DNA from: Psammoneis japonica
Taxonomy: Eukaryota
DNA: 64,000 nucleotides
NCBI GenBank assembly: GCA_008632985.1
Contig: QPGO01000269.1
Span: 1-64,000, forward strand
Direction: 5' to 3'
The notes below the pieces were generated by a model, which did not search any database, had not been told where the DNA came from, and saw nothing but the letters and a program-made list of their open reading frames with translations. The translations under genes and the position numbers were made by a program. Within the stretch, counting starts at the first letter, position 1. Each line of letters begins with the position of its first letter. Shown one piece after another: positions 1 through 56,139 of the stretch.

Positions 1-2
1 CT

Positions 3-749
3 TGCGGCGGTGTCGACTTCGCGAACGGACCTTGTGATGCCCAAGATCATTGTGACGGTTCAGGTGGCTGTGTGGACAAGAAGCAACCGTTAACATTTGA
101 ATGCAGCCCGCCAGAAGGCCCTTGTCAGCATGCTGCGCATTGCGATGGCGAGACCGATGCATGCCCCGAAAAAGAATTCAAGCCTGCCACAACTGTTTGT
201 CTCGGGGACGGCAGCGACGCCTGCAATCCCGGCGAGCATTGCACCGGAACCGACGCTGATTGCCCAGAAGACATTGACCACAACAACGGTGGCTGTGCGT
301 TCAAGTGTGGAACAGACCAGCACATGTGTGGCGTTAAAGCTGGCCACGGTGGCGTCGAAATGAGAGCCAGAGGCAAAAACGTAATTCTCAGTGTTGGCGG
401 ATGCAATGTTGGCAACATCGACGACACGCACGAGCTCGATTGTCTCCAGTGCCAGCCAACCGGCGGTGATTTAGGCAGCATCAGACCGCAGGATGGCGAT
501 TGCACTTGCGGACACGGTGTGTCGAACTGGGCTGTTCTTGTCTGCGAGGATGATGGCGAGGGCAATCCCACTTGGTCTTGCTGTGGCAAGTGCGAGGATG
601 GCGATGGATGTTCCACCATTGACGGTGCTCCTGCTGAGTGCCCTGACACGCTCACTGCACGCCATTTGATTGGTTTGCGCCATTGGGGCGTGGATCCGTC
701 TGGATGTGCAGGAGTGGTGGATGGATGGATGGATGGATGGATTGGATGA
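3..749 (+). pseudogene. 3' part of a Cys-rich disintegrin-like repeat protein gene (cut by window edge), probably mutationally eroded
   Basis: Frame open from nt 3 (CGGVDFANGPCDAQDHCDG...). Repeats C-x(4)-C-x-G-x(4)-CP (CQHAAHCDGETDACP, CNPGEHCTGTDADCP). No Tyr in ~250 codons, His at the E-Y-C position, and the frame runs into a (GGAT)n microsatellite. Confidence 0.6.
717..748. repeat. (GGAT)n microsatellite
   Basis: ggatggatggatggatggattggatga seen directly. Confidence 0.9.
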
Positions 750-1564
750 CGACGGAAATTTGGAAAGTTGTGATGGAGGACAGCTGGATTGACAGTGAAT
801 TGGATTGGAGCGGCGGCTCGTGAGTGGAGGATACATGTGAATGCATGTTTGAACGAAAGAGGGCTCGGCGGAAGATCTAAAGAAGACGAGATGGCGGAAG
901 AGTCCCTGTTTTTGCATTTGCGATTTGAAAAACAGGAAAGCCTTGGTCCGTGAGTTGAACACAAGAACTGGCGATGTATGAAAAAACCCTCATGGATGCA
1001 AGAGAAAAAACCAACTGCACTGGATGGACAGCGTTGACATCTAATGGGAGCTCGGTGCGGTTGAAACATTGTGTGTAAGTAGAAACAGTTCAACAGTTGT
1101 CGTTTGCGATTGTTCGAAGCAACACCGTGCAACGAGCGGCGTTCGGAAAATGGTGCCGAAATCTGCGATGGAGCAATGCGGCCAGTTCGACTCAACACAA
1201 CGGCGAACGAAGCAAAACCTGCAACGTTTGTTGATGGATCGGGTCATCGACGCGAACACAACGATGCCATTGGAGCAGCAGTGGATTGCTCTTCGCAACA
1301 AGTCGCACTGATGGCGAAAAAGAAAAGCAAGACGCTTGCTGCCATCGGGGGCGTTGTCATCATCAGTCCGCACAGGCAGTGTTCATTCGAGTGGTGTGGC
1401 ATGTTCTTTGAAAGCACAACATCGCACACAGGTGCAAAGCAAAAGAGCGAAAGTGCACGTTTCGAAACACAAAGATGGAAGCCTAAAGCTGCTTCGGATG
1501 AGTGTGGCAATGTTCTGCCGCATGTTCGTGTGGTTTCGACAAAGACGATGGATGAGGCCTGGGT

Positions 1565-1772
1565 TGGGGGAAGTCTCCAGCCAGCTGCTGGCTGAAGAAT
1601 TTTATGTGGGATTTGCACTGAAAGAGTCTGTCGATCTGTGCATTAGGGAGTTTTGGTGAACGCTGGACAGACTCGTTTTCTTTAGCGTGCGTAAAAATTG
1701 CACTTGCAAAACCCCCAAACGCACTGACGAGCAGACTTTTTTCAGCCAGCAGCTGGCTGGAGACTTCCCCCA
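1565..1772. mobile_element. 208-bp MITE, copy 1 (TG...CA ends, 32-bp perfect TIR, 4-bp TSD GGGT)
   Basis: TIR tgggggaagtctccagccagctgctggctgaa at both ends; gggt at 1561-1564 and 1773-1776; second copy at 7705-7912. Confidence 0.92.
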
Positions 1773-2149
1773 GGGTTCCGTTGCCTGTGCACGACCATGT
1801 TGGGGGAAGCTCCACAGGGTTCTTGCACTGGCAACAAAGATCAATGCCTTGAGCCTCCAAGCGACGCTCAATCCATGGCATGCTGCCGCGTGCATGAGGG
1901 AATTGCTGGTGAACCGCCGCCGCCGCCCTCTCCTCTGATGCATTGACCTTGCGCTGCGCCTCCATGCGACGCAAAAAGTCGTGTTCTTTCACATCGCCGA
2001 CCAAACCACCAATGTTGGTCTGTCAATGTTTCCAAAGAGCAAAAGATGATGAGTGTTTGCATCATGGTGGACAACTGTGCATGAATGGTCACCAACGGAG
2101 CGAGTGGCCACCGATGGAACGAGTGGCCAACAATGGAACGATGCGAGTG

Positions 2150-2477
2150 CGGTGCTGCGAATTGCTGGACAATTGCGCGACACACGTGCCCGAAGGGTGA
2201 TTGTTGCTTCGGGCACGAAATTCAAGCTTTGCGCACGTAGAGACCGTAGAAAACACACCAGCATTCGAGAATGTCCGATTTGTGTAGATCACGCAGCACA
2301 GCACCACAGAGGTCATTGATGAAATTGCTTTGACGACTCATGCGACTGCAGCGAGATTTTCAATGCCACATGCCATGTGGAGTGGACATCTGCGCGAAGG
2401 AAGAATGTTGCTTCGGGCAATGACATTCGACCTTCGGGCACGTGCATCGCGCAATTGTTTTGCAATTTGCAGCACCG
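2150..2477. mobile_element. ~330-bp MITE-like element with ~48-bp imperfect inverted repeats
   Basis: cggtgctgcgaattgctggacaattgcgcgacacacgtgcccgaagg matches the reverse complement of 2431-2477; internal cttcgggca repeats; no clear TSD. Confidence 0.65.
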
Positions 2478-2547
2478 GCACCGGTTTGCATGGATGCGGC
2501 ACTTGACAGGCGCCGCCAAAGACGAATGCGCGCGGCTCGTGCGCGGA

Positions 2548-2692
2548 GAAAAGTGCGAGGTCGCTCACAAAGTGCGAGGTCCGGAAGTGCGCATGACGTC
2601 GGAAAGTGCGAGGCCGGAAGTGCAGTGTGCACGACATCGGAAATAAAGTGCGAGGTCTGGAAGTGCGCACGACGTCGGAAAGTGCGAGGTCA
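2548..2692 (+). repeat. Degenerate minisatellite (aagtgcgaggtccggaagtgcgcacgacgtcgg-type units)
   Basis: aagtgcgagg occurs five times with interleaved ggaagtgc...cgacgtcgg. Confidence 0.85.
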
Positions 2693-4659
2693 AGAAAAAC
2701 ATGAGCTCGCAATGGTGAGTTGGTCACAGACAACAGTCGAGCGAACGGGCACCACGAGACTGCACAGACAAAGGCACGCTGTGGATTTCGATGGGCAGTC
2801 AAGTTTGATTTGAAGGACGGTTCTCATGTTTCTCGTGTGACAATGAGACAAAAACAGGGGGAAACGTCAAGCCTGACGAAACCACAACGCCACCGAAACG
2901 CTTTGCACAGACACCATGGTGTCAAGTGCGACATTGTGGAAGCATCAAACGACATCAAAAGAGCAGAACGACGAAAGTGCCGTGTACAGATTGCTCCTCG
3001 CCCTTGAGCACACGAGGAAAAGTCAAAATGTGACGCGTTTGCCGAGAAACAAAGCCACGCAGCACTTGCCATGAGATTTCCATGCACCTCGGTGCATGAC
3101 AGAAGGGCACTGAGTGCCAAAGCGCTGAATGCAGCAGTCGTTTTCATCATGGGGTGCCGCATTGTTCGCTCAACAATGCTCGTTTTTTTGTTTTTTGACA
3201 CTGTTCAAAGCACTAGTTTTTTTGCGAGAGATCGACCCTCCAGCACCGGTTCTGTCACAACAAGGTAGAATCTACTGGTGTTTGCACCAGAGATGAAGAA
3301 AGAGTTGGCAAAGGCAACATCCAAGTGGGCGCACCACAGTTCTTGGCCCGTTCATTTTCTACATGGCCTGGCACAACCCAAATCTGTGTAGATTCAGCAC
3401 ATTTCGCCCTGTGGAACAGTTTTTGGGTGTGTTTTCTGGCTCACGACGCAAAACAACACGCAAAATGACACGGACAATGGCGTTTCGCCGATTTCAAAAA
3501 TGCGGTTGTTTCTGAGGTACTTTGTAGTGCACTCTCAACGGAGTGTCACATGTCATGGCACAAGGCATGTGATGAGCTCGAGAGTGCACAGGTTCACATG
3601 GGCAGATCATGGTGAAATTTTGAACTGAAGATTGGTGTTGACACCGCCGATTTTGTTGCATCAACACGCAACTCATGCATCACCATTCATGCTGTGCATT
3701 TCGTTGAGCACTCATGCGCTCATGTTCTTTCAACTTACACACACATTGTCTTTCCGCATTGTTGTTTTGTTCTGTAGGGTCTCCCTTGCCATGGGCCATC
3801 CCTGAGAGAGAAGTGCTTGCTTTGAATGTCGCTTCTACCTTGCAACGGCCACGGCAGTCTGACGACAAGTCCAAGTCACAGATGCAGCATCCGGATGACT
3901 TCACAACAAATGTGGAAGCTTGGGTCTGTGGTGTCTGAAGATGTTCAAGCTCTCAGCAGCTCAGATTTGTCGTCGAGCAATTTTGACGCGCATTTGATGT
4001 GCCTCCAGAAGGTGATGCGCAGTTTTGTTCGACAGAGAAACGAGCCATGGCGATTGTGATGGCTTACATTGAGTCTCACAGATGCAAGGTAGTTTATGAT
4101 GTGGAAATGTGTGACTCATTTGCCTCATCTGCTAAGCCTGTGCAACACATTCAGGTGTCAAAGTCGGGGCAAATTGTGCACAATGCCAAGTCTCCAAAAA
4201 CAGCACAAGAGTGCAAGCCCAAAAGAAGAATTGGCTTTGCAACTTATCATGGGAGTGTAGAGCTTATTTTTCTGGGGCATCATGTCTCTGTTGTTTTCAT
4301 GGAGTGGACATTCACTGGTGTTGTTGCCGCCAATGTGCGAGTTCGCCTTGACAACACGTTGCACTGCATTCTCTGAGAGTTTGGAATGAAAAAACAACTT
4401 GCATTTACATCACTCTATCATAACAGAAATGTATGAGCTATCCCTGGCCCTTTTGGAGAAATGGGGCAAGTGAAAGAGGAGCTACAGAAAGATGCGGACG
4501 ACGCCATTTTGATGGATTGTCGTCAGGTGGTGTGTCGAGAGGAGTCGTGATGGAGTGCCGCTTTGTGTTTTTGTACTGCGTCTATGTAGGAATGTACGTG
4601 CTTGGCTCTCGTGTAGTTTCTACGTAAAAAGTGTACCAGGCGATCTCTGGACCGCCCTC

Positions 4660-5210
4660 TTAACAATCCTTCCAAAATCGATCTGTCCTTTCTATGCAAG
4701 GATTCGGTAGCTGTCCAACGCATGGAAAAAGGCGGAGAAATTCAAGCTCTATTTAATGCAGTTCCTGACATCTTTTCCAGTGAATGTTAAATAGCCGGTC
4801 TTTGTCCAATCTAGGAATGTCACCGTTCAGTCTGCCTAGACAGATTGCCCCACTATCAGTTTTTAAGAGGGTATAGGACAAACGTTTAGTTAAAATATAG
4901 AAAATGTCCATACATTATTCCAACCCATCAAAAATGCGGAGACATACTCTATCCATTTAACGAACCTGACATCTTTTCCATTTAATGTTAAATGGACTCT
5001 TTGTGTCATGTCCAAGAATTGCTGTTCAGTGCTTTTACGATTAGAAACACATTGCCCCACTATCAGCAGTTTTAGTCACGAACGGAGAAACAGTTAGTCG
5101 TAGTTAAACGAATGCCTTGATACGCAGTTACTCCAACGATGAAAAGCGTGAGTCAGGCCATTTAACGCACTGACATCTTTTCTTGTGAATGTTAAATAGT
5201 CATGTCCGGG
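4660..5210 (+). repeat. Non-coding dispersed repeat with ~204-bp internal periodicity; paralogous to 18124-18620
   Basis: taacaatcc..ccaaaatcgatctgtcctttctatg shared with 18124; ctgacatctttt...aatgttaaat recurs near 4765, 4965 and 5170. Confidence 0.8.
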
Positions 5211-5349
5211 AAGAAGCTCCGCAGTTTCCCCGAGAGGTGATCGTGCTACGAGCACGTGCTTGTCCGTCCGTGTGCTTAGATTTTTTTGGGTGTGGCTTTT
5301 ACGAGCAAACTGGGAACATTTGGAGTGCACACCGGTCACCGCACCCTAC

Positions 5350-8300
5350 ATCGCATGCCTCTTCTTCCACTGCCTTCTCTTCCGCCACGCCGGTCCTTCT
5401 CTGACGAGATTTTGGCATGTGAGAAGAATGAAAGAGGTGGCCGCGGAGGTGGCCCAGAAGAACAAACTGAAAAGGAGAAAAAGGGAAGGAAAGAAAAAAA
5501 AAGAAACAAAGAAGAGAAAAAGAGAAGACATTGCTGGGCCAGCTGTCAACTTGGGGCCCTTGGCTGGGCTTGTGCCTGCAAAGCAGCTTGTCTGTAACTT
5601 GAGGTGCTGTGGTTTTGTGCTTGACAGCAAAGCTCCCGCAGCATGCAACCATGGAGTTGTTGTGTCAGTCTGTGACAGCTTCACAATGGTGTCTTTTGTG
5701 AGCATTTTGCTGCCAGTCTGCCATGGCTTCTTTTGGGCAGCTTGTTGTCCAAGCCTTGCCCCACCAGCTTGGCCACTGCTGTGGATCTACACCTTCTTCA
5801 TTCTCCAAAATTCAGTGCACACTTTGGCGGGTTTGGCTCCGTTGTGTTCAAACAATTCTCTGAAGTCTCCAAGTGAGAAAACACGGTGTCATCCTCTTCA
5901 AAAGCTCTTGACAAAAATCCCCATCGACAAGCACTGGCCTTCCCATCACATGTCATCAGCAGACCAGCACCTGCCTCAACAAGCTCACAACACATCTCCT
6001 GTGGCAGCATCTGTGGATGCTGTGCCCAAGTTTTGGCCTTGTGTGTCACAAAGTCTTGAGAGAACTTGTGTGACAAGCTTTGTCACCTGCTGCCACCTTT
6101 GGATTTCCAGTGCAGCCACAGCTGCTGCAGGAGGCTCATCCAACAACAGACAAGACAGGAGAAATTTCACATGCTTGTTGCTGCACTGCCAAGGAGAGGG
6201 GTTTTTAATGCCTTGCTCTTGCCAGTTCCCACTGGGACCTCAAATTGACCTGCAACCTTCTTCATTCCTGCTGCACTTTGCCTTGAATTTTGGATGGCCA
6301 GCTGAGCAAGAAGACCCCCTGACTGCCTGTGTTTCTCAGCTCATGTCTCTGGCTTTGTGACACATGGTGCAAAGCAACATCATAAAAATGCTTGTCGTTG
6401 TGCTTTCCCAACACTGTCCCATCAGCCAGTGCCTTGTGGCACAGCTCTTTGCTTGCTGGCTCCCAACTGGGAGCTCCTTGTGGTCTGGTGTCTTCTTCAA
6501 GCAAACCACACCCCATTCTTGCCCAAAGAGGGGGGTCAGACCAATGCACATGCCTGAAAGAGACCCTGTGTCACATCATGAGGTTCCACAATGAAAACGA
6601 GTGAGATGAATGAACAACAACACATCAGCTGCAACGGGAGCGGTTTTCTGCTTGTCTCTTCATTGTGCGAGTGTTGCGTGAAGCCTTTTTGATGTTGAAT
6701 CTACGCCACAACACACTGAGAGTGTACGCCACAAAATTTCAAAATTTCATTGATTTTGCACTGGGTCTGCGCCACTTGGCGCATGTAGAATCTCATGTAA
6801 AAATGATGTGCGCCACTGTGGCACAAAATTTGTGTGCACCCTGAACCATTCTGTGCCACTGGTGGCGCAGGGTCTGGCATGTTTTTTACACTTCTGGCAG
6901 GAATTTTTCCATTGTGACATGGACTTGCCCGATCTCTCTTGGCATCACACCACCCTGCCTCAAATTGCTTCCCACCTGCCCGTTCTCCCCCTCCTCTGCA
7001 TCTTCCTCCTTTTGCCATCCTTCTACTGCCACCCTGCTTTGCTCACTTTGTCTTTGATCCCTTGACCCCTTCCTGCTCTCCTCCCAGGCCCCCATCCTTT
7101 TGTTGCCCTCCCCGAGTCTGCCACTTCCTTCACCAACTTGGCACTGCTGTCAACCCTTTCTTCTTTCCTTTTCTGGCACTTGCTTGCACAATGGATCCCC
7201 AGATCTGGCCCTCCACATCCGCGAGTGCCTCCGTGGCCATGCAGCTGCTGGAGAACCTCCCCTCCCTTTTGTTTTTCAAGTTCCCACCTCCCTCTTTTTC
7301 TTTGACAACTTTGTCCTCCATGTCAACGATTGCCATGCCGACTCTTTTGGTGCCCCTGACATTGTCATGCCCAACCCAAGCTTTGCTTTGCCTCTCTCTC
7401 CCACATGACTGTGCCATCTTCCCTTTTCATCCTGCCCAACCCTTCCCCAGCTTTTGCAGCTCCTTTGATGCCTGCTTCTGCTGACCCTTCCACTTTTCAT
7501 TCATTTCATCAGGCTTTCCCAAACCTTGACATCTAAAAAAAAATGCTGTCACAGCACAAAAAAGAAATTGTTCTCTTGAGAACCGCAGCTGGCATGAGTC
7601 AATGACTGCATGTTCTGCTTCATCCATGCTCTGCCAGCAACTGAGGAAAAGATTGGGCATGTTGTCAGCAGCCAATGACTCTCTTGTGGGCAGACAACAC
7701 ACACTGGGGGAAGTCTCCAGCCAGCTGCTGGCTGAAGAATCTTGTGTGGAACTTGCACTGAAAGAGTCTGCCAATCTGTGCATCAGGGGGTTTTGGTGAA
7801 CGCTGCACAGACTCATTGTCTTTTGCGCACGTAAAAATCCCACTGGCAAAACCCCCAAACGCACTGACGAGCAGACTTTTTTCAGCCAGCAGCTGGCTGG
7901 AGACTTCCCCCAACACACACACACATCATTTTCCCCCGCTGTCCTCCTCAAAAGCTTTGGTGCATCATTTTCCACTTTCTTGTCAGATCCAAGTCCAAAA
8001 TTCTGCACAAACATTGTGCTGATTGTGCAAGCATGTGTTTGACAGTGCGCAGTGGACGCGACTGTTTGCAGAGCACATTTTGGAGGAAGTTGCAGGTGTG
8101 GCCATTTGCCCAGCACATTTTTTGTGATCACATTGGGCAAGACAGAAAATTTGGGTTGTGTGTCAACAGGAGAACAGGAGAAGTGGCTGGCATGTTTGCA
8201 TCACTCTCTTGACTGTGGCAGCATCTTTTGCAGGATGTTGTCATGCAGCACTGCTGGGCCAGACAAAAATGTGCTCTGCTCCTCATCAAACCATGCAAAG

Positions 8301-8730
8301 CTTGCAATGCCAGAGACAAAGAGAGGCAGGGTTGTTCATGGCATAGAGCTGAGCACCCCTGAGCAGATGGGGAAATGACTCATCTGCAACATTGGTTTCT
8401 TTGCGGGTGCTGTGCAGGTGCTGATGAGAAACCCCACCTTCACAGCCTGTTGCACCTGGATGAGTGGAGCTGGCAAGACATTGGCTGGGAAGTTGTTGAC
8501 TGCACCATGTGGTTGGGCAAATTTGGGATTGTGCACAAACCAAAAGACCACCCATCATTTTGTTTGACAACTGCCCCATGCTGGTGGTCAAAGCAGCCCT
8601 GGTTGGCAATGAGATTGCACTCAGTTGGCATCACCTTTTGGAGCAATGACCACTGCTGGGCAGGTGTGTGGTCCAGTCATCACTGGAATGCTGGGGCTGC
8701 ACCACCACTGCCATGTTGCACCAGTGCATG
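5350..8730. mobile_element. Unclassified decayed transposon-like pieces (TpA/CpG-depleted); possible LINE-like fragment near 8370-8730
   Basis: Near-absence of TA and CG; clustered (TA/TG)CGCCAC motifs at 6700-6870; hosts MITE copy 2; no unambiguous domain recognised. Confidence 0.45.
7705..7912. mobile_element. 208-bp MITE, copy 2 (TSD ACAC)
   Basis: Same 32-bp TIR and length as 1565-1772; acac at 7701-7704 and 7913-7916. Confidence 0.92.
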
Positions 8731-8799
8731 AGAGCAGAGCATGCAATTGACTCAAAATGACAAACAAATGAACTGATCATGCTGCATGACTTGCGCTCA

Positions 8800-11700
8800 C
8801 TTGTTGGGCTGTTGCACAACTGGAGACATTGAAAAAGCAGAAGCTCAAGGTTGTGCAAACTGGCAGCTGTTGTTGTTGCAAAAGCTTTTAACTGAAAATT
8901 GTCACTGCAATGTCAACCAGAGATTTTGATGGCAGAACTTGAAATTGGAATGTGCGAGATCATGCATGGCAGACAGGTGGAATGACAGATGTCAACACTC
9001 CCTCTCAACTGCAGAGCTGCTGGCATGAGAGACTCAACCAACCAGATGTAAACTTGTCAGTGATGAGTCCCTTTCACAAATTGATCAGCAAGCTGTGGAT
9101 CATCTCCTGCAGGCTCAATCCAGATCTCAAGACCCTCCACCTTCATTCAGAACCAATGACAGGGAACACCAATGTGCTTGGTGTGTGGAGAGGGCTTGGC
9201 CATTTTTGCAAACTTGAGGCATGCTTGGTTGCCTTTATGAACAACCACAAAGAAGGGATTGTGCCATCTTTTACATCAGAGAAGGCTTTGGACTTGGCAG
9301 TGGCAGGGGTCTTGCAGCCCTTGAGTCTGAATGCATGACTCTTGAATTCTTTCAAAATTTCACAAATTGGAGTCAAGTTGCACATGGCAGCCAACACAGA
9401 GTGAAGTGCTTGGCTTCAACAGCAGAAAGTGCAATCTGCATCTGCAGCTTGGACACCCACAAAATGGGACAATCACAATGCAAGATGACGTGCCCAGTGC
9501 AAAAGACTTGATGCTGACTGGGTCTTGAGAGTCTTCATGACCACAAAGGTCAGCAAAGTTGGCATCAACAAAGCAGTTGATGTGCTTGTTGTCACTGCGA
9601 CACAGACAGAGAGTCCCTTGTCCCTGGTGCCTTGCAAATGCAACAGAGTGCACTGCGCCACAACTGCGTGGGAGTGCTTGGAAGGACAGGAGAAGCAGGC
9701 AGCTTGGTGTGTGGTGCAGCAGATGTCGGGTTGGGAGCTCAATGACAAATGCACCAACATGCCAATGACAGAATGACAACCCCAGTTCTCTCATCAAATT
9801 TGGCTCCCTCTTTGTCCACATGACATGAAGAGGTGATGCTTGGGGCAGGGGCTGAGCAGCAATCTTCCACACCAGCCATCTTGAGGACCATGTCAATGAG
9901 TCCATGCTGTGTGAGAAGAAATTCCTTGGGGGGCAGTCTTGTGAATCTCAACACCAATGAAGCCACCAACTTCTCCCTTGGTTTGCATCCTGAACACGTG
10001 GCATTGATCTCTGTCTTGAATCCCTGGAGCCTCAATCTCACATTCTAGGACAGCTCCATCCTTGACAGTGAGAACAGCATCATTGACATGGACCACACAA
10101 ATCATCCTGTCCTTGAAGAATGCTGGGCATGGGTCAACTTGCAACTGAGTCCACCCTTCCAACAAGCCTTTGCACAGCTTGTGGTCAAAGAAGCTTTTGG
10201 GGGCTTGCTTGAGTCCACAGAGACTCTTGAAAAGCTTCAACGCAATGTTCTTGGATCCCAAGCTGGTGGCAAAACACTTGGGTGGCTCTGCATGAACAAC
10301 TTCCATCATCTTGGCCTGCGCAAATGCGCTGGTGTGGTTGACCTGATGGGTTGTTCAACCTTCTTGTGGGACAGCACTCAATGTGAGATGGAGAGTTGAC
10401 CACTGGACCGCTGGAGTGCAGGTCTCAAAGCTGTCTCAACTCTCTCTTTTTGCGGTTCCTCACAGACACAGAATTGTGCCTTGAACTTGAGCAGCATGCC
10501 ATCTGGCAGTCATTTCAACTTAAAGGCCCGCGTGGACTTGAGCACATTCACAGACTTTTTGTGCTTCACAAATTGCCACATTTTGCAGCGGACTGGAGCA
10601 GATGCTTTGGTTTTCATGGCTTTGATGTGTTGCTTGGCAAAATTGCCTGAGAGAGCTTTGCAAATGTTTGGGGTGTTGGCATGGCATTTGACCTTGGCAG
10701 CATGGGTTTGATGGTCTTGAACATCCAACATGTCTTGGTCACAGTTCACCTAGATCTCAGCTGAGCAGGCAAGCTGATTCTCCAACCACAACTCTTCCCA
10801 GTGATCTGGTGGTTTGCTCTCCCTTGCAATTGAAGGAGCAACCATGGTGAAGAGATCATCAAATGCAACATGACACTGGGGAGCAATGGAGCCAGCATTG
10901 AAATTGAGGACCAGAGGAACCTCGCTGGTGTGAACATCACCAAGACCAAGAAACACACCACAACAAGAACACAGCTGCCAACATGGGAGTTTCTTCCCTT
11001 CCTGCAACTTGAAATCCAAGACAAAGATGTGACACCCCCAAATGTGGAGATCATGGAGATGATGGTGTGAGATGGCAAAACCAGCACAGATGTTGGCAGG
11101 ACAAAGGCTGTGAGTTCCAGGAGTGGCAGTGCAGATGTGGGCAGCACAGCAGACTGCCACAAGAGGCCAAACAGAGTTGTTGACACCACCACCATGCCAG
11201 TGAGTTTTTGAGGCATGCAGGATCATGGCATGTGAGCCACGTTGGATGTCAACCAAATTGAGCACTCTGCAACCCCACTTTGATGAGGAGCATTTGTGCC
11301 ACAGAAGTGCACGCATTGCTGGGAGTCATTGATGTGTGAAACAATCTGGTTGGCCTTGAAAGCACCGCCATTGGTGAGGTGAGTTTGAACGATTGCACCA
11401 CATCCCATTGCCACAGTCTCATGTGCCTGTTTTGCTTGAGAACAGTTTTGACAGCACAGAATCTGACTTGGTTTTTGATGGGGATGCAACCAGAGGTGTG
11501 GTCAACAAAAATGCAGCCGCCATCATGCTGCTGGGAGGAGGGTTTTCATTGGGAATCACAGGTGCAACCCTTGAGACATGATTCAAAGTGAGCGACACTG
11601 ACAGACTGGCCAGGCTGGAGATGCTCAGAGCTTTTGTTGCCTGGTTGTGCTCAGGGTTGGATTTCTTGACAGCAGACTGCAGAGAATGGTGGTGAGCCTT

Positions 11701-13935
11701 GGTGTGCTTGCCTGTGTTGCACTCAGTGAGATCACACTTGGATGCGGCCTTGAACTTGTCATTGCCTCAAATGGACCACCTTGGAGAAGACCTTGGATCT
11801 TTGGAAAATGGAGGTGCCCAAAGTGTGCATGCCATTCAAGGAGAGATTTCTGTCCAGCAGACAGGTTGAGATTGTCTGTGCTGCCAACATTGCTCAGATT
11901 GACTTGTGGCACATGAACAGAGCCAAGAGTTGCATGGTCAGCTGGTGAGTGGGAGGAGTGCTTGCCACACTTGAGCATGAGCTCTGGCATTTCATCCAAA
12001 ACAAACTTTGAACATCTTGCTGTTTCCCCAAAAATGAATTTTGACACCATCTTCATGGAAGAGATGCTGTGGAGAGAGCAGCCAAACCCTGGAGGTTGGT
12101 GCAAGACAGGCGCAGAGCTGAGCAGTGATGTTGTGGCCCTTTCTGACCTGAAAGGTCCATGTGACGGAGCCCTCGCCGGCAATGCACATGCCTTCAGCCA
12201 CTGCGCCAAGGATCAGCAGGGTTTGGCAGCACTTGATGGGGCCATCGAAATCATTCTTGTTGGGAGTGACAGCCTGCTGGGATGCACCAGCATCAAAGAT
12301 GACCTGGAGGTCACCCGGTCCAACATGGAAAAGGGCCCACTGGGGATCAGTGGTGAGACATGTGAGTGGGGTCTCCCCAGACATGGCACAAATCACAGCG
12401 GAGGAGGGCAGAACAGGAGATGCAGACAGATCATCCAAAGCTGGCTTTGGGGCATTGGCACAATCAATGAAACAGTGAGCATGACACAGGTCAGTGACAC
12501 CAAAAATGTCTGCACTCATGCAGTTGGTCTCATGGAATGTTTCAGCATCAAAGAAGCCTTTGTGGGAGGTCATGAGCTCCGTGCATGCGTCTTGGTGAAT
12601 TGGGTGCTGTGGTTGACACACATCAAAGGGGCGGCTTGAGACATGGGATCTGGTGGAAACATTTGCACAAGAATTCAAAACAAAATGTCAAAATGGAAGC
12701 TCTTGACATCAGATTGATCGGAGTCTTCAGACGTGTTCCAGTTCCATGTGATGCACAAAATGACATTCCCTTTTGAGCACAATTTGCGCAAGCTTCGTGT
12801 GTTGAGGTTGTTCATTAAAAACACTTGTGCATCTGGCTTTTGCATTTGATTTTGACTGTGTGCATTTAAATGATTTTTTCATCAGTGTTTTTATCTCCAC
12901 AGAACACACATCACAACATTTTTCTGTGGAAACAATGCTGACTGTGCTTGGGCACTTGCACTGCAGAGATTTCTGTGTGCAAGTTGACCACTGCTACAAA
13001 ATGCACACAGAAATGTTTTGTGACAACCTTCAAACAGCAACAACATGTGGATCTTCAAAAATTTTGGCAAAAATCATTCATTTTGTTACAACTCCTTTGT
13101 TGCAATGAAAAAAAATTGATTGCACACAAAAAAACAACAATGTGTGACTGCTGAAACTGGTCTTGTCAGTGTTGCAAAACATTGAATTTGTGTGAATCTG
13201 TGATTTTGGTGGTGAAAGCTCATTTGCAAGTCAGAGACCATGCAAGAATCACACAAATGCCATTTTTGTGCATGTTTTGGTTCACATGTGGCTGGAGAAC
13301 ACGTCTGCCACGGAAACTCAACAATCAAACAGCAACAATCAGCACAGAGACACGCAGGGTTGCTTGAGGGGGGGCAGTCTTGACTTGGTGGGGACTCGGA
13401 GAGTTCTAAACAACGCAATCTGGGTTTGATGTTGCAACAGTTAAAAACAATGACTCACAACAATGGCAGATCTGGGTCCGTGGATTGGCTCCGGTGGCGC
13501 CAGAAGAATGCACTTGCGTGCCTGTCAACGAGAAGGAGGAAGGCTCAGCCACATGCAGAATCAATGTTGACAGACTGGAGATGTCTGTCAAATCAATGGA
13601 CAATGATGCCATTTGAAATGGGTGATCAAAGACTTGTTCTTGATGACAGTCATGTTCAATGACAGTCACGTTCGATGAAAACGTGGTGGCTCGGGGCGCA
13701 GCTCAGGCAAAAGAAGCTGCGCACACTTCTTTTGAGCTCGATGACCACTTGTTGCACCAACGCATGACCAGAGATGTCAAAGGAGCAGAAGTTCAAGGTT
13801 GTAAACCAGTGGCTGTTGTTGTTGCAAAAGCTGTTGACTGAAAATTATGACTGCAATGGCGATCAGAGATTTTGATGGCGGATTTTGAAGTTGGAACACG
13901 CGAGATCGCGATAGCGCAGACATGCAGAATGACAG
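8800..13935 (-). mobile_element. Decayed Ty1/copia LTR retrotransposon (CoDi-like)
   Basis: Minus-strand order: protease (VIFDAGAS), GAG-pre-integrase (LLEWHAHFGHL), integrase (NAPHQSGVAECSI), RT (KSLCGLKQAP, VVHVND), RNase H (CFVDANFA). PPT gagagggag abuts TG at 8997. Direct repeats at ~8800-8997 and ~13745-13935. Many stops and frameshifts; probable nested AT-rich insert ~12680-13300. Confidence 0.88.
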
Positions 13936-14196
13936 GGAGGAGCCACATGTTGCGGTGGTATTCGTAGATCTACTCTCTAAGTTCACAATGAAGTCGCAAG
14001 GAACGACAAGGCAGCAATACAAGTCATGGATAACAAGTCGCTACTAGATTAATATGCGTATATTGCTAGATGAATGGTTGAGATACCGCCGACGCAAGAT
14101 ATCGCTCAACTCATCATAAATGTTGTTTCAACTTCTTTTGTCACCAGCCAATAGCCAATCATGTCAATGATTGCTATTGCAAATTGCAAACCCACT

Positions 14197-16902: not shown

Positions 16903-17190
16903 CTGAATGGGAGAAAGGAAGCAAGTGTAAAGTTAGTGGGCGCCAAGCGTCAGACGAGCAACAACAGCACGATCAAGTTTGAGGCAGCTTACCCTTTTCG
17001 TAAGTCTTTTTCTTACTTGCTGTGCTTCCTTTCGCTGAAAATCTTTGAAGAAAAAAGCAGTGCTGTGTTGGACACATGTGTGCAATTGGTGGCGATCAAG
17101 TGGACAGGACGCACGGATGCCATGATGAACAAACGATGCAATGGCCGAGGCACACGAGAAGGAATGCGAAAAGGAGATGTCACTTGGATT

Positions 17191-17406
17191 TGGTCGTGCG
17201 AACCCTCGTGTCATCGTGCGAACTCGAACTGTAAAGACGAGAACGACAAGCAATGTAAAGTTGACAAACTTGATTTTCATGCGGCACGAAGAGTACGATA
17301 AAGGGAAGGAAAGATGATCAAACGAAAGAATGACAAAGGTTGGGGTGAATGTGGTTGGGTCTGGTCGTGCGAACCCTCGTGTCACCTTTTGCGAACCCTC
17401 GTGTCA
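17191..17406. promoter_or_regulatory. Three copies of tgcgaaccctcgtgtca upstream of the secreted-protein gene
   Basis: 23-bp tggtcgtgcgaaccctcgtgtca at 17191 and 17362; 17-bp core again at 17390. Regulatory role is inferred. Confidence 0.45.
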
Positions 17407-18024
17407 AGAACACGATTGCCTGTCCATGAAGTGGATGAACGATCGTCGATGAAATGAATGGCATGGAAAACGGCCGCGACGAATAGAGGAGCCGCTAGTG
17501 GTGTTGTCTGTCGACGCACGATACAATTGGAATGCGATTGCGAGACGAATGCGGTCTACAGTCGTGGCACTTTGCAAGTAAAAGAAGAATCACAGTGGCA
17601 ATGTGGAAAAGGACAAGACGTGACGATCCGAATCAAACAATCGTGTCCGAACTCCACGTTCAAGCAACGACGAATCGATCATGTTGTGGCCTCGTTGTGC
17701 TGTTACGACGAACGAAGAATTCATGTGGTATTTTCGATCAAATCGGAGAGTTAAGAGGCAGCATAGTGTGGTCAAGCAGTGGGTAAAATCAATCGTGTGC
17801 CCGGACCATGCGAACTGCTGTCAAGTGATGCAAAACACTGCAATCCGCCTCTCTTTCGTGGAATCTCTGTGGCATTCCTGTGGACATGACGATTGCACGA
17901 CACTCAAGAAGCAAGCAGACTCAGTGTGCTTTGATGAACGATTGAACTCACTCTCGTTGTATTTTGTTGTTTTGCTGTGTTTTGTTTTTTGTTTTTATGA
18001 GAACGCCTGATGTGATTGAGGTGT

Positions 18025-18620
18025 TCTGCGAGAGATCCTCCATTCAGTGCCGGTTCTGTCACAACAGGTAGAATCTACGAGCATTTGTACCAGAGACGTA
18101 GAAGGAGTTCGTAATCGCAACATTTAACAATCCAGCCAAAATCGATCTGTCCTTTCTATGCTCTAGCACTACTCTAGGCCCCACTAGCTACTCTCTAGAG
18201 CTGGGGCCCTACTGGAGTCAGTCTCGGTAGCTTTCCAAAGCATTCAAAGGCGGAGAAATCCAAGCTCTGCTTTGACGCACGTTCTGACATCTTTTTTCCA
18301 GTGAATGTTAAATGTCCAGTCTTCATCCTGTCTAGGAATCTCGCCGTGCAGTTCTCCTAGATGCATTGCCCCACTGTCAGGTTTTGAGAGACGAATGGGA
18401 CTAACATTTATCGGCTGTTATTTTTCATGAAAATGTCTCTAGCAGGAGCTAGCTAATCTATCCAATGTATTCAAAAATGCCGAGATGCCCTGGCCATTTA
18501 ACGAAACTTATATCTTGTCCAACAAATGTTTTGAATGGCCTTTTTCTGTCATGTTCACGATCCTCGCTCTCCCTTTCTAGTACGACCAAACACAACATCA
18601 GTCACGAACACTGTCTAAAA
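18025..18620 (+). repeat. Dispersed repeat paralogous to 3222-3320 and 4660-5090
   Basis: gcgagagatc...ccggttctgtcacaaca(a)ggtagaatctac shared with 3222-3275; downstream part aligns to 4660 onward. Confidence 0.8.
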
Positions 18621-18849
18621 TTTACTGTGAGAAAAGGCTACGAGCAATGTCTCAATCTCATTCGGATTTCTGTCAGGGAACTTTCCACGGAACGTTCTTT
18701 CTGGCAGGGTGTCAAAGTCCCGGTCATTCGAATCTTCCGAATCTACTCTTGATGACGCACTCATGACGTGGAGGTTCACTTCATCCTGTTTGCCTTCGAA
18801 AAATGCAACACAGTGCCTTGCGAGACATGTTTTCCCAAAAAAAGCACTC

Positions 18850-21014
18850 CAGATTCAGAAGTGTTGTTTGTGGCATCATCTCAAGAAACCAGAGAGCATG
18901 AAGATCCAATCGCCACTTGGGTCCAAGAAGGGAACAAAGACCTCAAGCTCTGTCCTCTCATTGAGGAAAATCAGAGCACCAAGGATGACGAGCTCAAGGA
19001 TGTTCTCTGCGACATTGTGCCTTGCAAATGGCAGCACCAGTCAACTCTTCAATGTTTTGAAATTTTGAAACACATGCCTTTAATGAGTTGGTCAAGTTTT
19101 TGTGGAGCACATCTGGAGGTTGCCACCGAAGGATGTCTTTGACTCCACCCATGTCAAGGCTGATGCAAGCAATGAACCTGGATCAAAAGCCAATGATGGG
19201 TCTAATCATGGACCCAGATTGGTTGCCAATCTGGCACCAAAAAACAATCTGAGTGGTGTGCACATGCCCTTTTTCACTCAAAAACATTGTTTTTGTGGTG
19301 TGTCAAACATCTGAGACATTTTGTTTAAATGATTGCGTCAATGGCTTTTAAGCAGCAAAACATGCAGATGGAATTTGAACCAAGCAACAGCCAAAATGGC
19401 CATGGCTTTCAGGGACCATGACGGCCTGCTTTTTTCAACCTTGTGGAAAATTTTTAATGACGCAGCGAGGGCCGCAGCATTTTGTGCAGTTTGTGTCATC
19501 AATGACAACAGTGAGGGTGCTTGTTGCAGGCTGCAGTGCAGCACAAGAGGACTGGTCTGTGAGCAACAGCAGTTGAGCCTCATTTCACTCACAATTTGCC
19601 TCTGAGGATGAGCCTTTTTCCATTGCCATGTGTGTCACACCTCCAAAGTGTCGACTGACAAAAGTGGTTCAGTCGTTTGTGTCAACATGGCAGTGAAATG
19701 GGGTCCAAAGTCAATGCCATTGCATGGGCTGACTTTATTTCTTCTCATGTCTTCCAAAAATTGGCAATCAACAAATGTTTTGTTTGGTCTGTTGAGAGTG
19801 AGTTGCACTTGCACATTTTGACAAAAGTGCTTCATGCAATGTTCAAGGGTTGATTTGCACATGTGACAACTTTTGCTTTGTGTTTTTGTGCGCACATGAT
19901 TGCGGTCATAAATTGCTTGTCAGAAACCAAGCTCTCATTTTGGGGCACAATTTGGCAACCAACAACTCAATCCACCCTCAGTTTTGAATGCATGGGTGCA
20001 TGCACGAATGCACGAGACCTTTTCTGCATGCACCCACAACAACACATTTGAAGATTGTCATGTTTGAACTTTTGAAAATTGCATCAAAAGTTTGGACCAT
20101 GCATTTCATGCAAAAAGGGGCATTTTTTGCACCTGTGTGCACCCAAGTCTGGAGCAAGTCTCCAACAAGCTGTGCAGCTGTTGTGAAAAACCACTCATGA
20201 CACGGAAAAGTGCTTGGTCACCAAAAGACACCAGCAAAAAAAATGACGTGGGAATTGCAGGCATGATCCAAAGTGGCATTGTTCAAATGTCAATCACATG
20301 TGGTCACATTGCAATGATGAAAATGCTGCTCACAAAGAAGAGTTAAATGCTGCGGTCATTCAGGCAGTTCAAAAAACACTCAAGACAAGTGCTTTGAACA
20401 AAAATGCAAATTGCCAGAGCAAAAAGTGTGGCTCTGACCCCCTCAGTGAAAAAAACTGTCATCAATTTGAAAAACTGATGTGCAGCAATTCTAAAGGATG
20501 ACCAGCTCCGCTTCAGAGATCTTGCACCCTGACAGACATTGGGAAGCCCAGAAAAAGGGTCAAAGTGATTTGCACTGGTCCAGCAGTCATCTCTTGCATG
20601 AACACCTCAGGTGAAGCAAAAAATGAGCCTCTGTGCATTCTCCTTGAGACAGCAGAATGTCGTCAACCACAATTTGCACAAATTCATGCAGAAACTGAGA
20701 ACAAAATTTTCCACAACCAAATTTGGGAAACCAAAGGAGGGCTCTTCAGGAATGATGGTCAGTGTAAAATCCAGCTCCCTTTGCTGGAATTTGACAAACA
20801 TGTGATGATGGAGACAACAGCACATGTTGACAACACCCCTTCTTCTTTGAGTCATTGTGACATGATCATGGAATGCAACTTGATGGCCAGTCTTGAGATC
20901 ACATTGGACTTTGCAAACAAAGAAATCAAATGGGAGGATGCAACCACACCCATGAAGAATGTTGACACACTCTCAAGTGCTGATGTTTTCAAGTTGATCA
21001 TCAGAGACCTGTAG
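18850..21014 (+). mobile_element. Decayed Ty3/gypsy gag-protease fragment with an internal insertion
   Basis: DDELKDVLCDIVPCKW gag-like segment; WETKGG...LLEFD...VD...CDMIMECNLMASLEITLDF...IKW...PMK matches the retropepsin C-terminal YDMIIGRDL pattern. Confidence 0.7.
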
Positions 21015-21465
21015 AAATGGCCTTGAGTCACAGGCCATCGAACCCCACCATCTCATGGCGTGCCCACGCGCGCAAACACTGGGTGCTCCCCCTCCTGATT
21101 TAATTTGACATTCACTTGTTAGCGCCAAAATGTTTTCACACTTTGCTGATTGCCATGTCACTCAATTGTTGCTCCCAGACATGTTTTGTTCAATTGGCAC
21201 TTGTTGACTTGAATGCCAACATGCCAAGTCACATGGCTGCATCATCTCATTGACGGTGGACAGTTGCATTGTGTCCCAACTGAAAAATGTTTATTTTCAC
21301 ATTGCATGTGGCATTTTTGCCAAAAGTTCTGCATTTCCATCCTCATTCTGGATGTCAATCATTCCGCCAAATTTTCACCTTTTTCTGTGTCCCCTCCACA
21401 ATCCCTCCTCACCGGCAAATCACAATGTTTCATTTGCACCATTCACCTGAGCAATCACGCATGGG

Positions 21466-21665
21466 AACATGGAATTCTTCTGCAGAGCAAAACACCAGCA
21501 GCAGCAGTTTGTCAGCTGTGGCCGGTCTGTCAGCTGGCTGTTGCATGTGAGCCACCACCACACTGTAAAAAATGGAGATGCACAAACAAACAAAATTTTG
21601 CTGTGTGTCACCCTGTCACATTGTGCAGAAAACCAGTCTGCAAAAAAGATCACCCAAGCACATTG

Positions 21666-21717
<52 letters not shown>

Positions 21718-22239
21718 GCACAGATCTGATGATGATTTTTTGTTGGCTGGGGGCTGTCTGCTCAGCAAGTGCATGTGTGAGGAGCCCACATGCAATGTTG
21801 CCTGGCTGTGCAGTGATCATGACAGATGCTGCAGCAGGACAATGAAACTGGGTCACACAGATGGGAAATTGGGCAGGTTTGGGGGGAGGGGTGGCAAGGT
21901 GCATGTGTGCAGCTTTGCTTGGTGGAGCAGTGAGACCAAGTTGGTCCACAAGAGACATGGCAACAACCACAAGGCTGGGGCTCCAGAAGCCCCACCAGAG
22001 TGGCATGGTGGAGTGATGAGTGAGACCCAAGTGGGTCACAGATGGAGCATTTTTCCATGCTGTGATGGCAGCTTGGAAGATGGCAGAGGGGTGAGAGCAT
22101 TGGCCACAGGTGTGTGCAGCATGGGCTGCCGGGTGCTGGAAGGAGGATTCAGAATTTCAAGGTGGAGCTGGGTGAGCTGGCACTGGATGATGATGGTCAG
22201 CACCAAATGGCGCAGGCAGTGGGAGAAGCATCCGGGGGC
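21466..22239 (+). repeat. ~770-bp direct repeat, copy A (contains (GA)n(GACA)n at ~21668-21717)
   Basis: Colinear with 27513-28278, e.g. shared caggtgtgtgcagcatgggctgccgggtgctggaaggaggattcagaatttcaaggtggagc. Confidence 0.88.
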
Positions 22240-22811
22240 ACTCTCCACAGTGAGACCATGCATTGATCATTTTGACCAAGCCCAAAGGTTGCCACATGGA
22301 CTCATGCAGAAGTCAGATGGATGTTTTGTTGCAATGCCTCTGGAATCCCAGCATGAATCTGCATGCACAAAAAAATTTCTGTGGAGAACTCTGCAGGAAA
22401 CATGCCAGGAGGCATGGCAACAAATTGTCTGCATGCAGCCCTGGCACATTGTCTGTCTTGCTTCCACAAGAGTCATCTGTGAGGACACAACATTGTGTGT
22501 GCACAATGCATGCAACAACAGTCAACACATGGACTCATGATGGAGAGTGATCCACCCAGGGGGGCATTGAGGTGATGGTCAATGGTGAATGGGATGAAAT
22601 GCTGCACCATCACGCAGCGAGACCTGTCCAAACTGGACCATGCCTGTGCACATGCCTGATGTCATGAAGCCTTTTTGCAGACATCACCATGTCACACCCA
22701 TGCAGTGCTTTCCCAACTGCATCACACTTTCATGCACACCCCCACTTCATCCACACAAGAATGTGTCGCTGCCCTGATTTTGTGTTGTTTGCACTGATGA
22801 AGGTTGATCAT

Positions 22812-24382: not shown

Positions 24383-25439
24383 GGGCATTGAACCAACTAG
24401 AGTCAATCCCAAAACAAGACCTGGCACAAATTAAGACCCACGTGGGGCATGGCACAAACATGCACAGAATTTTCTGTTGGCAAAAAAAAATTGAGAGGCA
24501 TCGCGTTCAAAACAGCATGACGAGTGCATTTGATTGCCGCCCTTTTTGCCCCCCAGAAAAATCTTTGGCCCTTGCGGGGTCCATCTGTTCTCCAGTGCTG
24601 AAATCACATGGATTTCTGCATGGGTCTTAAATCACCACCTGCCCATCCGCATCGGCTCGTTGGACATTTTGGCTGGCGCACTGAAACCAATGAACCAACC
24701 AGATTTGAAAAAGAGGGTGGGATTTTTTTGTTGCAACTTCAATGAGATCTTTCATGTCCATGCACAAAAAGTTGCATTGTGTGTGCATGGAGAAATTTTG
24801 GTGGCTGATGATCTTTGGTGGGTCTCAATGTGTGATTGACTCTACATTGATGAAGTTGGAACAAAACAGAACAAAAACACACAAGGAGAATGACGGCACC
24901 ATGATGACAAGAATGCAGCCATGCCACAACAATGAGCCAAGCAGAGAACAAAAATCAATCACAATGTTAAAGTTGTGTGTGGCTTGTCCATTGACAACTT
25001 TGCCATGCAAGCAAATGCCACGGATTGACTGAGAGAATGTTCAAGAAAAATGCCAAGTCGCAACAAGACAAGTGTGGCGCACAATGCACCCCAACGCAGC
25101 AAGTGCCTCACATGTGACAAGGTTGTGGGTTGTTCTTAGATGAGATGCAGCCATGCACGCTTTTGTTGCATGAAAAAGCCACTTCTGGGTCATTTCGTGT
25201 GTCGGCTTGCTTGGGGGTGTGGTGTTTGGGGCATGATGTTTTTAGGGAACACTGTTCACCCCAGAACAGTTTTCCTCACAAAAGTTGGCATGGCCTAAAA
25301 TCACATCATGCATGGGGCTGACAACCACCAATTTTTTCTGAGAGGCTCATTTTTGGCACTGTGACATCAACAATCAAATGGAACAGAAGGACAACTCATG
25401 TTCACACTTGCAGGGGCCACAACAGAGGCAGCATGTTCA

Positions 25440-28278: not shown

Positions 28279-28471
28279 GGGATGAGGAGGCAAGAAGATG
28301 CCCGCTTGCGGTTCTGTCGAGAGACGCACGTCCCCCAAAACTGCCACGTCATCATTCCCACGTGCTCACTTTTTTTCTGTCATCTTTCTCGGTTCTCGGC
28401 ACAAACATTGTCTCTCTCTACATATTACAAGTACTAGCAAGCAATAAGACAGTCTTCCAACAACACCAGTG

Positions 28472-42495: not shown

Positions 42496-42679
42496 TTTTG
42501 TGCGAAGAAACAGTACAAGTCGGAAGCACGATGCTTTCAACGCGTCGTTGATGTCAAGATTGGCTGTGCCGATTGAATCCAGTAGCCAAGATGAGCAACG
42601 ACTACAGCAGAGGGAGTAAATGAAAGCGATGACGGATGACGTTATTGAACGTTGTGGATGTCGCGCGTGTACCATAGTT

Positions 42680-56136: not shown

Positions 56137-56139
56137 GGA

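Follow-up and report, generated by a model that had tools for sequence, protein, structure and literature searches.

TpA loss uncoupled from CpG loss in repeat blocks of a Psammoneis japonica contig

We analyzed a 64,000-nt stretch of DNA from Psammoneis japonica (GenBank assembly GCA_008632985.1, contig QPGO01000269.1, positions 1 to 64,000 of the forward strand; hereafter, the window), in which blocks of DNA have lost most of their TpA dinucleotides (TA) while CpG dinucleotides (CG) are lost over a narrower range. An earlier sequence-only reading had claimed that the two losses are uncoupled. The claim holds: a 4-kb block at the left end of the window has a TA observed/expected ratio (o/e) of 0.13 with a CG o/e of 0.95, CG depletion is nested within TA depletion, and the boundaries of the two are offset at 5 of 10 edges. 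Within this window, the further claim that TpA loss is not a simple by-product of CpG decay is thus well supported.

Over the whole window, o/e values are 0.30 for TA, 0.63 for CG, 1.49 for CA, and 1.52 for TG. Three states can be distinguished. Normal DNA has a CG o/e of 0.89-0.96, a TA o/e of 0.50-0.60 (~0.55), CA/TG values of ~1.24, and a guanine-cytosine (GC) content of ~0.475. In the TA-only state, at positions 1-4000, TA is down to 0.13 and CG stands at 0.95, with CA at 1.50, TG at 1.57, and a GC content of 0.52. Doubly depleted cores have a CG o/e of 0.17-0.30, a TA o/e of 0.05-0.08, and CA/TG values of 1.6-1.9 (~1.8), so the statement that domain cores lack both dinucleotides was correct. 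The CA/TG gain grows from 1.24 in normal DNA through 1.53 in TA-only DNA to 1.8 in cores. The TA-normal parts are gene-dense, with long open reading frames (ORFs) carrying GST, bestrophin, UAA-transporter, STT3, inositol-phosphatase-type (5-phosphatase), and AMP-binding domains; these annotated genes all lie in TA-normal DNA, and host genes in the window have a TA o/e of ~0.5. The depleted blocks contain a copia element, miniature inverted-repeat transposable elements (MITEs), and repeat pairs, the exception being the end of a disintegrin-repeat gene in 1-746.

The window was segmented by a two-state hidden Markov model (HMM) on the probability of A given T and, separately, on the probability of G given C. 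All five CG-depleted segments are nested in TA-depleted ones, bar 12 bp at one edge (Table 1), and the HMM found no CG-only depleted state in the window. Approximately 6.3 kb of the 33.8 kb of TA-depleted DNA retains CG. At the 10 paired edges, TA depletion extends outward beyond CG depletion by 102, 500, 178, 264, 65, 56, −12, 34, 1102, and 39 bp. For comparison, a shared-boundary null was sampled from the normal DNA of the window, with both depletions ending at one point and each boundary placed at the first TA or CG outside; its offset has a mean of 8 bp, a standard deviation (SD) of 33 bp, and a 99th percentile of 100 bp. Offsets above this percentile occur at five of the 10 edges, with TA loss running 102-1102 bp beyond CG loss, and nine of the offsets are positive. 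The reverse offset, CG loss beyond TA loss, is never larger than 12 bp.

Metaplots give a similar picture. Aligned on the TA boundary, a single 150-bp bin takes TA o/e from 0.02 to 0.65, and CG runs through 0.37, 0.63, and 1.1. Aligned on the CG boundary, CG is itself step-like (0.12 to 0.92 in one 150-bp bin), and TA beyond it recovers only across the next 600 bp (0.25, 0.39, 0.46, 0.45, and 0.78). The possibility that edges facing a promoter generally keep CG was considered and rejected, since the edge at 47714/47726, by the 5′ end of the phosphatase gene, has no offset.

For the CG-retaining zones, we calculated the Poisson probability of so few TA at normal-state density. It is 6e-16 for 960-3250, 2e-7 for 51807-52909, 2e-5 for 13300-13960, and 1e-3 for 28153-28417; the deficit is marginal at 18648-18826 (P = 0.012), and by this test there is no significant deficit at 5351-5453 (P = 0.086) or 50075-50120 (P = 0.37). 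The sequence-only reading had rested on 960-3250, which holds 160 CG (o/e 1.04) and 15 TA (0.12), and on five shorter intervals described as rich in CG and nearly free of TA. Four of these are real: 1085-1480 (33 CG, 0 TA), 1780-2230 (30 CG, 0 TA), 28240-28410 (14 CG, 0 TA), and 51816-52280 (29 CG, 1 TA). The fifth, 50075-50120, is too short to count (46 bp; 7 CG, 0 TA). TA-free runs within 1-4064 reach 404, 546, 359, and 341 bp, with CG o/e of 0.85-1.26, whereas the longest in ~22 kb of normal genic DNA (28.4-42.7, 43.4-47.7, and 60.2-64 kb) are 158, 198, and 176 bp. As an outside background, used as a distribution only, 1683 windows of 600 bp (539 kb) were taken from 76 environmental loci around STT3 relatives. 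Their median TA o/e is 0.65 and the 1st percentile is 0.22; windows below 0.22 have a GC content of 0.65-0.77 without CA/TG excess, with one borderline exception (GC 0.54). No low-TA block with CA/TG excess was found in the 76 loci, which are gene-centered, mostly short contigs and so uninformative on absence in other diatoms.

Repeats identified by self-comparison of the window allow copies at block edges to be compared with interior ones. In three such pairs, the edge and interior copies hold 8 and 1 CG (the long terminal repeats, LTRs, of the copia element), 15 and 4 CG (a ~770-bp repeat), and 9 and 5 CG; the corresponding TA counts are 3 and 1, 1 and 1, and 1 and 0. A control pair with both copies in the interior holds 5 and 4 CG. 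CG in the edge copy stands opposite TG or CA in the interior copy, versus the reverse, in ratios of 6:0, 9:2, and 5:2 (20:4 in total; binomial p = 0.0015). The copies differ by transversions at 11 of ~190 and 80 of ~770 aligned sites (5.8-10%). The pairs are therefore old, and the margins had ample time to lose CG but did not. Since the two copia LTRs share age and starting sequence, their unequal CG content is due to neither age nor consensus and points to position. For TA in one copy against TG or CA in the other, the few informative sites give 2:0 (MITE), 3:0 (3184-3320 versus 17985-18123), and 2:1 (copia LTRs).

Two edges allow the end of an element to be located (the copia LTR at ~13935-13960 and the repeat start at 51792). 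In both cases, TA loss stops at this end, and the margin that keeps CG belongs to the element itself. Dense TA resumes ~25 bp past the outer copia LTR, and CG depletion already ends at 13300; the CG-keeping margin is therefore copia's own 5′ LTR and leader. Small size is no bar to CG loss, since the 0.77-kb island at 42678-43447 is CG-depleted. The claim that TpA loss spreads further thus stands in one sense, TA loss running beyond CG loss at half of the edges, and is not supported in the sense of leakage into flanks. Likewise, a wider reach of TpA loss fits the 20:4 retention of CG in edge copies but mostly amounts to CpG decay stopping short of element ends.

The left block also carries a coding trace of TA loss. 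The frame at 3-746 encodes P0122, the C-terminal part of a Cys-rich protein with disintegrin repeats. In a representative library, P0122 has 1056 relatives at E ≤ 0.001, many with 5-23 matched repeats; the Pfam Disintegrin-repeat domain is present in all three relatives scanned, P0122 itself being below Pfam's reach. P0122 contains 0 Tyr and 11 His in 248 amino acids (aa), whereas the mean over its 150 best relatives is 2.0% for Tyr and 1.0% for His. In 972 local alignments, a Tyr of the relatives is aligned with P0122 in 1177 cases, and in 444 of these P0122 has His. The protein repeats the motif D-H-C-D/T-G where relatives carry Y or F, and the His codons at these positions are CAT, fitting a change from TAT. 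As far as codons and alignments go, the His-for-Tyr exchange is the coding read-out of a TA-to-CA change. The exchange argues that the TA-free state is derived rather than ancestral, and that TA loss at 3-746 struck a gene of cellular type or a duplicate of such a gene.

Within TA-depleted DNA, windows that retain more CG tend to retain more TA (Spearman 0.59, p = 3e-7, in 64 500-bp windows; 0.46 if block 1-4064 is left out). The four windows with CG o/e of at least 0.9 already have a mean TA o/e of 0.12, compared to 0.55 in normal DNA (~78% of TA gone), and TA o/e falls just from 0.14 to 0.025 while CG goes from 0.6-0.9 to below 0.1. The pattern suggests that about four fifths of TA disappear in a rapid phase, ahead of any visible CG loss, with a slow tail afterward; it fits the earlier suggestion that TpA loss comes first. 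A MITE copy in core B (7705-7912) points the same way: compared to the copy in 1-4064, all four TA- or CG-type differences are losses in the core copy, which has the look of a more recent insertion, with TA lost ahead of CG.

TA loss depends strongly on sequence context. In cores, TA survival on both strands relative to normal DNA is 0.023 after A, 0.056 after G, 0.10 after C, and 0.20 after T; in TA-only zones, the corresponding values are 0.06, 0.21, 0.25, and 0.24. ATAT survives at 0 of 83 expected-scale sites, and TTAA accounts for 31 of 136 surviving TA. Therefore, ATA/TAT is lost first and TTA/TAA is refractory, TA-only zones being an earlier point of the same series. The target order implied for all depleted blocks is TAT > TAC > TAG > TAA. 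CG survival in cores by 5′ base is 0.15 (T), 0.19 (A), 0.26 (C), and 0.40 (G), a 2.7-fold range compared to ~9-fold for TA. The weaker dependence of CG is compatible with a different chemistry but is no proof of it.

We think it probable, although well short of certain, that two separate mutation processes have acted on repeat DNA, a TpA transition mutator and then a slower CpG decay in the interior. The mutator would convert TA to TG or CA (A:T to G:C) across whole blocks, fast and nearly completely up to element ends; it would probably be an enzyme, perhaps an adenine deaminase of the ADAT/TadA type acting on DNA. CpG-to-TpG/CpA decay would follow, most likely through deamination of 5-methylcytosine in repeats that we presume to be CpG-methylated. 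Being slower, this decay would weaken or end ~100-1100 bp inside some block edges. TpA loss would thus be earlier and fill the block, and CpG loss later and limited to the interior. CG-rich, TA-free zones would be mutator-struck DNA that was methylated little, briefly, or never, either as whole blocks (1-4064) or as the outer margins of old elements.

Several points weigh against this interpretation. Identity of the two boundaries, which the sequence-only reading had named as its own refutation if it held genome-wide, was assessed in the window and holds for half of the edges: at five of 10, TA and CG boundaries coincide within noise, the other five being offset. The CG-keeping margins, with CG o/e of 0.68-0.81 and a GC content of 0.53-0.60, are partly decayed rather than spared. 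The direction of change rests on a few dozen sites in old repeat pairs of 71-79% identity, and only for the copia pair is there internal evidence that both copies are LTRs of a single element; in the other two pairs, the copies may differ in age. The correlation between residual TA and CG fits dose as well as time. Within the left block, no ORF of at least 70 aa in 747-4064 has a Pfam match, and no relatives were found for a 372-aa ORF at 128-1243 on the minus strand. Finally, deamination of 5-methylcytosine is an economical presumed cause of CG loss taken from other diatoms.

Both processes might instead have acted on identical DNA, the CG-rich, TA-free zones being younger insertions or duplications. 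Such a mosaic of ages would account for the correlated residuals (rho 0.59), the higher retention of TA in C- and G-flanked contexts in TA-only zones than in cores (0.21-0.25 versus 0.06-0.10), the still open frame 3-746, the loss of TA before CG in the young core-B MITE, and the step-like CG boundary on its own alignment, as a mosaic of units would give. We nevertheless consider it unlikely, since copia LTRs of the same age hold 8 and 1 CG, the CG-keeping margin of copia lies within the element, and edge copies of old repeat pairs (5.8-10% transversions) still have CG. Nesting and correlated residuals would also be expected if one deaminase with strong TpA adenine and weaker CpG cytosine activity did both, CG loss then reflecting a higher dose rather than methylation. 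ADAT2 enzymes reported to edit both A and C in DNA are cited in a recent preprint (10.64898/2026.01.13.699255), and CG survival in cores is somewhat dependent on the 5′ base (T 0.15 to G 0.40). However, the 2.7-fold context range of CG is far weaker than the ~9-fold range of TA, CpG methylation of diatom repeat blocks is documented (PMC5124317) and explains CG decay without a new activity, and edge copies that lose TA fully and CG hardly at all would need different spatial rules; a single enzyme is therefore very unlikely.

No mutator would be needed in the TA-only zones if they were natively TA-poor, CG-rich DNA (CpG island-like, codon-biased, or from families with a TA-free consensus). The margins are indeed GC-rich (0.53-0.60), coding DNA is normally TA-poor, and 747-4064 contains MITE-like and tandem repeats of no established family. 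We find this highly improbable given that their TA o/e (0.11-0.13) lies under the 1st percentile of the 1683 environmental windows (0.22), that host genes in the window have ~0.5, that CA/TG rises up to 1.5 in TA-only zones, that P0122 is without Tyr and has His in its place, and that 3184-3320 carries TG/CA against TA in 17985-18123 at a ratio of 3:0. A TA-free family consensus, which the sequence-only reading had itself raised as a counterexplanation, appears unlikely wherever it can be tested, both from the His-for-Tyr exchange and because edge and interior repeat copies differ in CG, not TA. Last, modified bases of heterochromatin could have been misread as TG/CA during base calling or assembly, and only 62% of sampled 31-mers of 1-10000 are present in one DNA sequencing run. 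Such an artifact, which would also undercut the two-process interpretation, is extremely improbable: the changes are site-consistent and divided about evenly between TG and CA, codon changes in P0122 are coherent, repeat copies differ from one another, and the signature matches Illumina mutation-accumulation data of another alga.

A broader version of the two-process interpretation is a two-tier diatom defense, in which a rapid, element-bounded TpA mutator, also striking copies of cellular genes, would act first, with CpG methylation later and narrower; the mutator would occasionally leak strand-wise ~1 kb into single-copy DNA, erasing TATA-like motifs and host Tyr codons. We regard this version as doubtful. 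TpA loss leaking into host flanks is only hinted at. Along the right edge of 1-4064, TA o/e climbs gradually, from 0.15 at 3.5-4.0 kb through 0.35 at 4.0-4.5 kb to 0.77 at 4.5-5.0 kb. A partly TA-depleted intergenic zone lies at 17000-17990 (P = 1e-4), and the rise there is in TG only, which is a one-strand pattern. Between this zone and domain C lies a TA-rich repeat (17990-18647, TA o/e 0.69), whose second copy is 3184-3320 plus 4660-5200; if the repeat were a later insertion, one may speculate that 17000-17990 once abutted domain C. The 3184-3320 part, within the TA-only zone, has TG/CA at three sites where 17985-18123 has TA, with none in reverse. At 28279-28417, past the aligned end of the ~770-bp repeat, 139 bp contain 9 CG and 0 TA (P = 0.016); this piece could represent leakage toward the GST promoter side or an unaligned part of the repeat. 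No overall TG-versus-CA strand bias was found in depleted DNA (400-bp windows; SD of z 1.1-1.3 versus 1.34 in normal DNA). Local TG:CA biases were seen at 401-800 (56:27), 27201-27600 (30:63), and 28001-28400 (49:23).

The TA signature resembles one described in another alga. In mutation-accumulation lines of Bigelowiella natans, two integrated viral regions gained 231 mutations, of which 230 were A-to-G or T-to-C, all of these on TpA; the hypermutation occurred in some lines only, and the authors proposed an ADAT2-like deaminase (Mettrop et al., bioRxiv 10.64898/2026.01.13.699255). TA-poor coding sequences of B. natans are enriched for reverse transcriptase and DDE domains (10.64898/2026.01.13.699255). 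As in B. natans, changes in the window appear to be from TA to TG/CA only, on both strands and confined to blocks, with long-term TA depletion and CA plus TG enrichment: TA o/e is 0.05-0.13 and CA/TG is 1.5-1.9 in six blocks, compared to 0.55 and 1.24 in normal DNA. The restriction to repeat or foreign DNA is also seen, genes being TA-normal apart from the disintegrin-repeat gene end. The hosts and targets differ, a chlorarachniophyte with mainly integrated giant-virus and virophage DNA there and diatom repeats here, and the depletion reported for B. natans is moderate (Rho TpA 0.45, nucleocytoplasmic large DNA virus region) compared to 0.05-0.13 here. The available text of the preprint mentions neither CpG nor diatoms, and the TpA-CpG relation is not covered in it. 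No report of TpA erasure in diatoms was found in full-text literature searches. The comparison suggests that TpA erasure here may be a second case of the B. natans-type signature.

Fungal repeat-induced point mutation (RIP), in Neurospora and others, is likewise a block-wise transition hypermutation of repeats that kills transposons. Leakage of RIP into adjoining unique DNA is known, and the gradual right edge of 1-4064 and the partly depleted zone at 17000-17990 are similar to it. RIP, however, changes C to T, mainly at CpA, creates TpA, and lowers GC, whereas the change here removes TpA and raises GC (0.52 in the TA-only block versus 0.475 in normal DNA). RIP also depends on sequence duplication and on a RID-type methyltransferase; with respect to duplication, unmutated repeats (4660-5200, 18124-18600, and 60536-60796) adjoin mutated blocks. 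The copies at 4660-5200 and 18124-18600 are 70-95% identical and TA-rich (TA o/e 0.6-0.7), with a ~200-bp internal unit, and at the first locus the repeat is interrupted by 1.3 kb (3321-4659). The 60536-60796 repeat, located 340 bp beyond the right end of domain F, is a TA-rich tandem array of two 133-bp copies with 93% identity.

Diatom methylation is mainly at CpG and forms repeat blocks of up to 30 kb beside unmethylated gene-rich DNA, for example in Cyclotella cryptica (PMC5124317). Methylation-driven CpG decay likewise gives CG depletion and TG/CA gain in repeat blocks beside CG-normal, gene-rich DNA, and this signature is present here (CG o/e 0.17-0.30 in cores; CA/TG 1.53 in TA-only DNA rising to 1.8 in cores). 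It explains the CG part only, neither TA loss as such nor TA loss at intact CG. The TA specificity of the loss recalls ADAT/TadA deaminases, which target A after T/U; fungal ADAT (Tad2-Tad3 mRNA) editing prefers U at position −1 (PMC11156358). The likeness is at the level of signature, since ADAT/TadA enzymes act on RNA loops (tRNA A34, mRNA) and the change here is a heritable one in DNA.

Table 1. Depleted segments, blocks, and elements of the window (positions in nt; an empty strand cell means that no strand was assigned).
Feature	Position	Strand	Description
TA-depleted segments	2-4064, 5351-13800, 18648-28417, 42678-43447, 47726-50113, 51807-60195		HMM; 33.8 kb
CG-depleted segments	5453-13300, 18826-28153, 42743-43391, 47714-50079, 52909-60156		HMM; 27.4 kb
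TA-only depleted block	1-4064		CG o/e 0.95, TA 0.13, CA 1.50, TG 1.57; extends past left window end; contains 960-3250
P0122, C-terminal part of Cys-rich disintegrin-repeat protein	3-746	+	Open frame, Cys-rich repeats
MITE-like element, 208 bp	1565-1772		35-nt terminal inverted repeats; 7 CG, 4 TA
328-bp element	2150-2477		55-nt inverted arms, 84% complementary; TA-free, CG-rich
TA-depleted domain B	5351-13800		CG-depleted core 5453-13300 (HMM)
MITE copy in core B	7705-7912		5 CG, 1 TA; 92% identical to 1565-1772
Degenerate copia-type retroelement (predicted)	8798-13935	−	LTRs 8798-8988 and 13746-13935 (76% identical); RVT_2 9896-10354 (−), E = 1.1e-8; weak gag_pre-integrase 11628-12212 (−)
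CG-keeping, TA-poor margin	13300-13960		26 CG (o/e 0.68), 6 TA (o/e 0.14); in copia 5′ LTR and leader
Partly TA-depleted intergenic zone	17000-17990		TA o/e 0.25 (P = 1e-4), CG 1.24, TG 1.58, CA 1.13
TA-depleted domain C	18648-28417		CG-depleted core 18826-28153 (HMM)
~770-bp repeat, interior copy	21466-22239	+	4 CG, 1 TA
~770-bp repeat, edge copy	27513-28278	+	15 CG, 1 TA; 71% identical to interior copy
CG-keeping, TA-free margin	28153-28417		17 CG (o/e 0.81), 0 TA; upstream of GST ORF 28448-30142
Small intergenic island, TA and CG depleted	42678-43447		CG-depleted 42743-43391; 0.77 kb; 4 TA among 184 T
Domain E	47726-50113		TA and CG boundaries coincide (offsets −12 and +34 bp)
TA-depleted domain F	51807-60195		CG-depleted core 52909-60156 (HMM)
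1.1-kb CG-keeping margin	51807-52909		55 CG (o/e 0.71), 8 TA (o/e 0.13); starts at repeat copy 51792-51935 (partner 55846-55982)

We treated the DNA of the window as eukaryotic, presumably nuclear, and from a diatom: across most of the STT3 frame (34230-36452), identity to diatom proteins is 51-61%, and the matches with a named source include Striatella, Amphora, Epithemia, Mayamaea, Pseudo-nitzschia, and Phaeodactylum. Among 292 ORFs of at least 70 aa in the depleted blocks, a Pfam search gave RVT_2 (E = 1.1e-8) as the sole solid match. Its position between the flanking LTRs corresponds to the layout of a putative 5.1-kb minus-strand copia element. The other Pfam matches are weak (gag_pre-integrs, 0.0061; VPS9, 1.1e-4; PH_SPT16, 0.0041; zf-like, 0.0045; and DUF5814, 0.008), and cores C, E, and F are therefore without protein-domain support as transposons. 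The VPS9 (E = 1.1e-4) and SPT16 PH-like (E = 0.004) matches lie in core C at 22316-22534 (−) and 21451-21726 (+), respectively, and are possibly what is left of host genes that were captured or duplicated. In block 1-4064, copies within two tandem arrays (2551-2691, 34-38 bp; 2083-2139, 19 bp) differ by CG versus TG/CA, and at one site by TA versus CA. A search with the MITE end gave 0 exact matches in metagenome contigs.

Frames in TA-free DNA are open on both strands, as at 3-746 (+) and 128-1243 (−), and in depleted blocks the length of an ORF says little about whether it is coding. The change from TA to TG/CA removes TAA and TAG; TGA arises only from TAA, and no new in-frame stop is made. 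Long ORFs on both strands are therefore expected, unlike under RIP. The 372-aa ORF at 128-1243, which lacks relatives and is antisense to the real frame 3-746, was rejected as a gene; it most likely stays open because TAA and TAG are lacking.

If this interpretation is correct, transposon control in diatoms would have a mutational arm distinct from, and faster than, DNA methylation, and the TpA mutator of a chlorarachniophyte would gain a second, distant lineage. The use of CpG o/e and GC content as proxies for methylation in diatom genomes would need rereading, and repeat-age estimates would change, as TA and CG sites would not be clock-like. Long stop-free ORFs in dead repeats would be explained, given that TA-to-TG/CA changes cannot create stops. 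TA-only zones such as the left block of the window would then be natural places to catch the TpA mutator acting, separate from methylation.

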